DNA of 64,000 nucleotides from assembly GCA_963797095.1 (NCBI GenBank), contig CAWCNY010000002.1, positions 320,001-384,000 on the forward strand. The letters run 5' to 3'. This stretch comes from an uncultured Chloroflexia bacterium (GTDB lineage Bacteria > Chloroflexota > Chloroflexia > QHBQ01 > JADMIH01). Positions 4,368-5,582 of the stretch are shown piece after piece. A program made the position numbers and the translations under genes. Under the pieces are notes generated by a model. That model did no database searches. It was given only the letters and a program-made list of their open reading frames with translations, and was not told the DNA's origin. Each line of letters starts with the position of its first letter. Within the stretch, counting starts at the first letter, position 1.

Positions 4368-5582
4368 ATGCAGAGTGACTTGTCCTCAAACGTTTCCCCT
4401 GAAGTCCATACAGCGGATCGTCTATCTGTCCCTGACGACCATATCTTTCCTGAGGTCAAGTGGATCGGTGCGGTGATCGTACCCGTTCTGGTTGCGGCAT
4501 TTGTAATTCTCTACCTATTTACAGATCGCACGGGCGATCTGTTTGCCTGGAACATAACGCCGCAGATGACCCCTCTCCTGATGGGCGCCGGCTATATTGG
4601 TGGTGCTTATTTTTTGGTGCGAGTGGTGTTTGCGAAGCATTGGCACACCATTAGCGCAGGCTTCCTGCCAATCACCGTCTTCACATGGTTTATGCTCTTT
4701 GCCACTCTTCTCCACCTTGACAAGTTCACACCCAACCATCCAGCCTTCTATTTATGGCTGATACTCTATATTATTACAGAAAACCTTGAAAGCCATGCCC
4801 ATTTATGGGCTGTGGTTCGGCTGATAAAAGGTTGCTCATAGTCTCTCCTTTGTCGCATAATTGAAGTAACGTGGAAGCTAACCAATGCTACACGCCACTA
4901 TTGCCTTCGGGTAGTAGTCCGCACTTTGATAATGCAAGATGTTAGCGGGTTGTTGCACGAAACCCTTGTGCAGCGTAAAAGCATCTTAGGTGTCTCCTAT
5001 AGTGCAACCTTAATGGCATATGGATGAGTATGCATCGGTGCAAAACCGTAGAAGCTGCTGGCGTTTACGCCATGCGGAGTCATCACTCCCATTTTGATCC
5101 CATTCCTCTGGATCCGCAACAGTGTGACTGATCCCCACATAATATCGACCGGGGACCTGATTGTGCCTGTGGTGGCACGTACAATCGCGAGCACACTAGG
5201 CATAGTGTTGCTTGTTGCCTCAGTAATCTTCTTTATACTACCCTTCTTTGGGTCGGGTGTGCTTGACGTGTGGGCTTGGAAAGTCTCACCGCTTACTCTG
5301 CAAGTGTTGGCAGGCTGGAGCGCGCTTACGGCTAGCTCAGGTATCGTACTCGGTCGCGAGTTGCGATGGAGCGCATGGAAGATACTGCTGGAGGGTCAGT
5401 TTGTCGCATTGACTTTGATGCTGCTCGGTGCGGTGCGCACCTGGTCAGACTATAAACTCGAAAGTCCTGCGACCTGGCTTTTTCTGGGAGCTCTTTCACT
5501 TATTCTGATCGGCAACATCATTCTCTATTCCACAATGCAATCTCGCAGTCGTCAGGGGCTTCAATCATCAATTCCTGAATAG
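4368..5582 (+). pseudogene. Multi-pass membrane protein interrupted by a 309-bp insertion
   Basis: Removing 4778-5086 fuses ORFs 4344-4841 and 5094-5582 in frame (...LYIIT-PILIPFLWIRN...), giving about 301 aa with two similar halves. Confidence 0.85.
4778..5086 (-). mobile_element. Non-autonomous IS200/IS605-family element carrying an IscB/IsrB-like omegaRNA and a relic ORF
   Basis: Inserted 3' of TTAC, ends in TCAC, no target duplication, subterminal hairpins at both ends; the minus strand has an AAAGGAG RBS followed by ATG AGC AAC. Confidence 0.78.

Follow-up and report, generated by a model that had tools for sequence, protein, structure and literature searches.

The interrupted gene

The window, by which we mean the whole stretch of 64,000 nucleotides from an uncultured Chloroflexia bacterium that was analysed, contains a membrane protein gene which is divided on the plus strand by a segment of 309 bp at positions 4778-5086. 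Read from the sequence, the segment lies in its surroundings as ...ATTATTAC|AGAAAACC...GTCATCAC|TCCCATT..., and a wider reading of the two junctions gives ATTATTAC|AGAAAACCTTGAAAGCC...GGAGTCATCAC|TCCCATTTTG. The features of the locus to which we refer below are these:

4344..4777, plus strand: first part of the split host gene, 5' of the element; the gene encodes a membrane protein and starts at TTG 4344 or ATG 4368, and in 10 of 10 homologous ORFs the alignment of this part reaches as far as the junction
4774..4777, plus strand: TTAC target motif and predicted TAM of TnpB; present 5' of six of the eight full copies, at copies in relatives and at the full insertion sequence
4774..4839, minus strand: ORF of 21 codons, MSNLLSAEPQPINGHGFQGFL, with AAGGAGAGA upstream; overlies the left-end hairpin and is probably not a gene
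4778..5086, plus strand: non-autonomous IS200/IS605 element (PATE/MITE) of 309 bp; eight full copies of 99-100% identity, precise insertion
4778..4851, plus strand: left end, containing an imperfect hairpin (subterminal, 4792-4816); the full tnpA-tnpB element has a left end of 84% identity to it, and relatives show compensatory variants
4856..4861, plus strand: candidate -10-like box CATAAT, based on family alignments; TATAAT in three of eight copies
4866..5086, plus strand: omegaRNA-like scaffold of ten helices, the span of model R1; based on RNAalifold, pair counts, strand comparisons and R1 matches at tnpB 3' ends
4916..5005, plus strand: central RNA domain, model R2; in gene-less elements only, among those examined
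5057..5086, plus strand: right-end hairpin (5057-5075) and an 11-nt tail ending in TCAC, the right cleavage site; helix 10, with compensatory changes in six of eight pairs
5087..5106, plus strand: predicted guide from the flank, of which the first 16-20 nt would be used; based on TnpB omegaRNA geometry and on R1 matches ending at the right end
5087..5582, plus strand: 3' part of the interrupted host gene; ORF list and homologue alignment

According to the ORF list, the element splits the host frame into 4344-4841 and 5094-5582, both of which are intact, and a Pfam search found no family for either half. Homologues were found in relatives with the C-terminal half as the query, and both halves were then compared with the ORFs. 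All ten homologous loci, which being relatives cannot count as independent of one another, have one uninterrupted ORF of 252-379 aa, in which the alignment of the N half stops at a residue x and that of the C half resumes at x+2; the single residue between the halves corresponds to the split ACT codon. Because of this single-residue gap we regard the ten as orthologs without the segment and the junction as exact to the base. An earlier note on this DNA had described a discrete 309-bp insert whose removal restores the host frame and had pointed to uninterrupted orthologs as the comparison to make; all ten homologues run across the site without the segment, which bears out this description. No further damage is seen in either half of the gene, which fits a recent insertion.

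Copies of the element and their target

In the genome, 6.0 Mb in 8 contigs and 93% complete, there are eight full copies of the element, 99-100% identical and with four variable positions in total among them, a copy number and identity far beyond chance; there are also two copies without the left end, one at 86% identity and several partial or diverged relatives. Six of the full copies are preceded by TTAC, one by GTAC and one by CAAC. Their 3' flanks are all different, no target duplication accompanies any of the eight and every one of them finishes with GTCATCAC. The search for other copies suggested in the earlier note was thus productive, and its claim of insertion 3' of a short motif without duplication holds. 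The ORFs lying wholly inside the element are all at most 68 aa long and the ORF list contains no transposase gene there. The presence of eight near-identical copies at unrelated sites suggests that the element may be excised and inserted in a TnpA-dependent way.

Some observations on individual copies may be added. The two copies without the left end, C3:348102-348367 (element positions 44-309) and C5:636573-636790 (positions 92-309), are 100% identical to the element and keep the whole RNA described below, but they should be immobile; the first of them also lies directly 3' of TTAC. When the element is removed in silico, a 317-aa ORF on the same strand spans C1:64443-64751 and a 373-aa ORF on the opposite strand spans C3:686303-686611, and it may be that these copies split other genes too. 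Apart from the window copy, the element lies for the most part outside any clear gene, or else within spanning ORFs in one orientation or the other. Two sets of soil-metagenome contigs cover the element alone and break at its ends, and one enters the flank of another copy.

The ends and the minus-strand reading frame

The ends of the element are two differing subterminal imperfect hairpins, not terminal inverted repeats. Taken alone, the hairpins at 4792-4816 and 5057-5075 fold as DNA no better than chance (z -0.92 and -1.68), but both are retained through compensatory changes in diverged members of the family, so that the earlier description of an imperfect hairpin at each end, with TCAC finishing the plus strand, can be upheld. 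In the window copy, the right-end tail at 5076-5089 pairs with the first three bases of the flank, which would also be the first of the guide (GGAGT CATC ACTCC), and a scan of this copy flagged the pairing as terminator-like with a T-rich tail. Such a pairing could hide the first bases of the guide or cause early termination of transcripts.

On the minus strand, AAGGAGAGA-CT-ATG opens the ORF of 21 codons, whose stop TAA is formed by the target TTAC. The ORF is present just as the earlier note read it, with its stop in the target, but we do not follow the note in taking it for the remnant of a nuclease gene: it overlies the left-end hairpin, and in relatives its peptide, compared by eye, is altered wherever the hairpin DNA changes and is not conserved over the hairpin. 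The ORF is therefore treated as a by-product. By eye, the 21 codons are also found at the left end of the full insertion sequence and in a copy of genome G015, and a GGAGG-ATG is kept at the position of the ORF start in two other subfamilies.

Elements with tnpA and tnpB in the same genome

Open frames beside the partial matches, together with tblastn, led to two tnpA-tnpB elements in the genome which are 99.9% identical. The full one, at C3:1052789-1054449, is built as TTAC|AGAAAAAC-left end-tnpA-tnpB-...GTAGTCAC, or with its ends in detail TTAC|AGAAAAACTTGAAAGCC-hairpin-...tnpA...tnpB...TAGAAGCT-hairpin-GAGTAGTCAC. Between its left end and positions 1-74 of the element the identity is 84%, and the right ends of the two are built alike. 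By Pfam, its proteins are a Y1_Tnp transposase (E 4e-38), encoded at C3:1053932-1054318, and, from C3:1052858-1053928, a protein of 357 aa with OrfB_IS605, Cas12f1-like TNB and HTH_OrfB domains, which aligns end to end with the structures of ISDra2 TnpB (E about 1e-45). This resident TnpB keeps GIDVG, AIEKL and HRDV where its best PDB match has the RuvC motifs, and we take these to hold the catalytic residues. The assignment to IS200/IS605 made in the earlier note is supported by this full-length parent, whose ends are homologous to those of the element, as well as by the TTAC-directed insertion. Both tnpA and tnpB of the parent read from the left end to the right end, which corresponds to the plus strand of the window and is opposite to the orientation that the note had proposed; its assignment to IscB fails on this point.

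The second tnpA-tnpB copy, at C1:424130-425690, shares 1561 bp with the first and has unrelated sequence at the position of the left end; it may be unable to move. Two further elements carry tnpB only. One (C1:22127-23219) has a left-end hairpin 96% like that of the mini-element, and its tnpB, which matches in three separate pieces, is probably frameshifted; the other (C2:1032889-1034047) has a tnpB of 42% identity and related ends. A second gene-less subfamily (C3:701837-702064 and C2:1331513-1331730) was also noticed, with a homologous RNA and different ends: the left end has the motif GCGGCTAAGACC and the right end finishes in TTCAC, and both resemble the ends of C2:1032889-1034047.

A structured RNA on the plus strand

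The interior of the element was studied with an alignment, A1, of 11 diverged members from three genomes, none of them from the unpublished genome G016. RNAalifold predicted 53 pairs in 10 helices on A1, with changes on both sides in 30 of the 53 pairs. The paired columns can pair in 92.4% of cells, compared with 78% in shuffles, none of 500 of which reached the observed value, and with 25-49% when the partners were slid. Which strand is the RNA? The alifold energy is -41.0 kcal/mol for the plus strand and -25.2 kcal/mol for the reverse complement, and the window RNA alone stands out from shuffles on the plus strand (z -1.94, 4 of 200) whereas the minus strand does not (z 0.02, 106 of 200). 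There are 73 G-U cells and 15 A-C cells, as well as two invariant U-G pairs, although a structure predicted on the plus strand favours the G-U count. One hairpin loop is UUCG in most members and GCAA in one, which are stable RNA tetraloops on the plus reading only. The earlier note had placed the RNA on the minus strand with a 5' guide; structure, wobble asymmetry, tetraloops and fold energies all speak for the plus strand instead. An H-type pseudoknot between GGGU before helix 6 and the helix 6 loop was considered and dropped, because there is no linker to cross the 8-bp helix. One member (L026, G015 C14) has 9 bases duplicated in tandem within the helix 1 loop, the other parts of its RNA being intact.

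A covariance model, R1, was made from A1; the E-values of R1 and of the second model, R2, are rough. R1 has 23 matches in its own genome. Four of them overlap a tnpB gene at its 3' end, run in the same direction as the gene and reach precisely to the right end, namely those of the two full elements, of the broken tnpB on C1 and of the 42% tnpB on C2, and the mini-element ends at the same model position as these sites. The other 19 have no tnpB-like sequence within 1.5 kb by tblastn. Within the order, R1 matches occur in 8 of 40 genomes, a tally which includes G016. Of 13 low-scoring foreign loci examined, 8 likewise follow a tnpB of the same orientation, the gene stopping about 67 nt short of the point where the match itself stops at the right end, and four of the five without tnpB are near the end of a contig or locus; none of the ten high-scoring loci (at least 87 bits) has a tnpB or tnpA in the locus. 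Among named relatives of TnpB, R1 matches the 3' end of the gene at 4 of the 22 loci scanned. These 22, of 44-48% identity, come from Ktedonobacter, Thermogemmatispora, Thermosporothrix and Chloroflexia MAGs; 34 loci had been found, and the 12 left unscanned are near-duplicates or short fragments. The names of these relatives suggest that the genome may be that of a Chloroflexota of Ktedonobacteria type. R1 aligns to tnpB-linked RNAs over no more than its 3'-terminal 90-165 nt and leaves the central 90 nt unaligned, so that compatibility of the element's RNA with the resident TnpB is assumed. Homologues of both TnpB and TnpA are present in all five other element-bearing genomes checked, although these genes are common generally.

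The central domain, for which R2 stands, is replaced in tnpB-linked RNAs by 4 to 84 unaligned bases, and at one standalone locus with a short form of the RNA only 7 of 86 model positions are found in its place. In its own genome R2 matches none of the four tnpB-linked sites. R2 matches were found in 11 of 151 genomes sampled across the class (again including G016), no tnpB or tnpA lies within 1.5 kb of the 9 foreign R2 loci examined, and the RNA structure is retained in at least four families of the class.

Upstream of the RNA, an extended -10 of the form TGnTAnAAT is kept in nearly all members, distant ones too. TGGTATAAT predominates in the close family, TGGTACAAT, TGCTATAAT and TGCAATAAT occur in distant members, and the window copy shows the weaker form TCGCATAAT. 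Only one difference recurs among the eight copies: the -10-like box begins with either C or T at 4856, which is element position 79. T, giving TATAAT, is found in three copies and in one soil-metagenome contig, and CATAAT in the window copy and four others. A simple promoter scan called no sigma-70 site in the window copy, and it is conservation in the family that suggests the element may have a promoter of its own.

Taken together, the ends of the parent on the plus strand, the RNA on the plus strand and the R1 matches at tnpB 3' ends make the segment a gene-less element with a TnpB-type omegaRNA. The earlier note was right in holding that the element kept both ends and a guide-RNA scaffold, for the ends are homologous to those of the full element and R1 recurs at tnpB 3' ends.

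Other explanations

Could the segment be a decayed IscB or IsrB element, as the earlier note proposed, with a minus-strand omegaRNA starting about 20 nt outside 5086 and a 3' TAM of GTAA? The geometry is legitimate, because the omegaRNA of IscB is bounded by the right end, as has been described; IscB with HEARO exists in the same order, and the Shine-Dalgarno-like AAGGAGAGA with its ATG stands where an iscB start would be expected. However, neither the element, searched at E up to 10, nor the genome (93% complete) yielded a HEARO match, while the same model scored 114-136 bits upstream of all four fetched iscB genes of relatives. The RRXRR domain of IscB and IsrB was found in none of the 26 genomes of the genus, the organism's own included, compared with 4 of 40 genomes of the order, and R1 has no match at the iscB loci of relatives. 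The minus strand folds like shuffles and gives the weaker consensus, and tnpA and tnpB of the parent lie on the other strand. The IscB/IsrB reading has thus largely been refuted already, and we give it very little chance. Rfam scans of 4300-5600 and 4760-5120 with E up to 10 gave chance-level matches alone, either outside the RNA or at 13.6 bits. This also bears on the idea of a mini-IStron, a self-splicing intron that leaves the host mRNA. The sense orientation inside the gene, a length of 309 that is a multiple of 3 and the existence of IStrons in the IS200/IS605 family would be in its favour. But no group I intron or any other Rfam model matches the element, and a group I intron ends in G, whereas the element ends in C; a candidate -10-like box is present in it as well, and the other copies do not sit, for the most part, in sense inside clear genes. 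With no model match the intron was rejected, and its probability can be considered negligible.

It is more difficult to decide what the RNA is for. The + strand is also the one which TnpA handles as single-stranded DNA, so that part of the conservation could serve DNA structure, and a plain PATE or MITE, whose interior structure serves only the transposition of single-stranded DNA or is a relic with no guide function left, might be imagined; the weak promoter of the window copy would agree with this. Against it, the covariation reaches about 170 nt past the terminal hairpin and takes in nine further helices, the helices are homologous to tnpB 3' regions, the UUCG and GNRA loops and the conserved extended -10 point to a transcript, and the structure has been kept in those four or more families. 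We therefore consider such an explanation unlikely. Alternatively, the RNA may be made for another effector or for a role directed at the host, such as with a nuclease-dead TnpB-like repressor or as a regulatory small RNA, and not for homing. The restriction of the central domain to gene-less elements among those examined, the ratio of 19 gene-less to 4 tnpB-linked sites in the genome and the published statement that the role of standalone omegaRNAs is unknown are compatible with such a role. Yet near-identical mobile copies, each with a different flank, fit selfish homing better than a fixed regulatory target, and the resident TnpB keeps its three motifs at the RuvC places. A role of this kind strikes us as quite improbable.

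The proposed mechanism

We conclude that the segment at 4778-5086 is very probably a recently transposed, protein-less derivative of the IS605 group which carries a TnpB-type omegaRNA on the plus strand and would be served in trans. Judging by its sequence, it has retained its two ends and, enclosed by these, a structured plus-strand RNA of roughly 220 nt, which is homologous to the omegaRNA of tnpB 3' ends. According to the model that we propose, a Y1 TnpA encoded elsewhere would excise the element as single-stranded DNA and insert it 3' of TTAC. Transcription, starting at the element's -10-like box or reading through from the host gene, would continue across the right end, and the RNA would thereby gain about 16-20 nt of the flank, from 5087 on, as its guide. 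With this guide, TnpB acting in trans would cut the empty allele TTAC+TCCCATTTTGATCCC..., and because the empty allele is cut, a copy lost by excision would be restored through recombination with a filled copy, as in the homing model outlined in 10.1101/2023.03.14.532601. The earlier note had also predicted the empty allele next to TTAC as the target, and this part of its prediction stands; the guide, though, would come from the other strand and form the 3' end of the RNA, and the TAM would be a 5' TTAC and not a 3' GTAA.

Relation to known systems

Gene-less elements resembling PATEs in Geobacillus stearothermophilus often encode omegaRNAs, with TnpB acting in trans (Meers et al., 10.1101/2023.03.14.532601), and mobilised standalone omegaRNAs that work in trans, with their role given as unknown, are mentioned for Ktedonobacter racemifer in PMC10691335; the findings of Altae-Tran et al. 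(2021) are taken from the summaries in PMC10691335 and PMC11610941. Gene-less omegaRNA elements have thus been described already, and the window element belongs to a known class. It shares with the elements of G. stearothermophilus and K. racemifer the lack of genes, conserved ends, an internal omegaRNA and several mobilised copies, as well as the presence of effector-bearing elements in the genome and the need for an effector and a transposase in trans. Going by the text of those sources, it may differ in its central domain of 90 nt, which cannot be aligned to the tnpB-linked RNAs examined, and in its own extended -10. A long form of this kind, with a promoter and a central domain of its own, may be a variant that merits attention.

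Of the well-studied insertion sequences, IS608 of Helicobacter pylori, also of the IS605 group, has TTAC as its target. It shares with the system studied here a Y1 TnpA and the TnpB family, insertion 3' of TTAC without duplication and subterminal hairpins, while the element itself is without both genes and its right end finishes in TCAC. The AAAG before the left hairpin and the GAAG before the right hairpin could be candidates for TnpA DNA guides of the kind known from IS608. The likeness to the ISDra2 TnpB-omegaRNA (PDB 8h1j, 8exa) lies in the TnpB protein, whose alignment extends over the whole length. In both cases the RNA overlaps the 3' end of the gene and the right end and takes its guide, predicted in the present case, from the 3' flank, but the RNA of the mini-element stands alone. 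The omegaRNA of IscB and IsrB (HEARO, RF02033) is likewise a guide RNA of IS200/IS605 elements with its limit at the right end, and standalone copies of it are known; it lies on the opposite strand with a 5' guide, and its model has no match here.

More questions are raised by the gene-less elements as a group. Are they mere deletion products, or could they form a lineage of their own, old and independent, which parasitises TnpB with a guide alone? The basis for the latter reading is their own extended -10 and the covarying 90-nt domain, absent from the tnpB-linked omegaRNAs examined, together with their occurrence in at least four families of the class and the excess of 19 to 4 in the genome. 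We put it forward tentatively, as a possibility against which the balance still leans. If it were true, the extra domain could aid competition with the cis-encoded RNA for TnpB, or recruit something else.

For users of the scaffold the change of effector would be of practical importance, as they would need TnpB, a 5' TTAC TAM and a 3' guide, and not IscB. The locus offers a clean natural case of a guide-RNA-only transposon soon after it split a gene, and with a readable empty site and an exactly stated predicted guide and TAM, the model of homing in trans becomes testable in a little-studied group of bacteria. The R1 and R2 covariance models separate the gene-less from the tnpB-linked RNAs. 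They also point to a conserved extra RNA domain and a promoter, which may account for the success of such elements in the absence of any gene.
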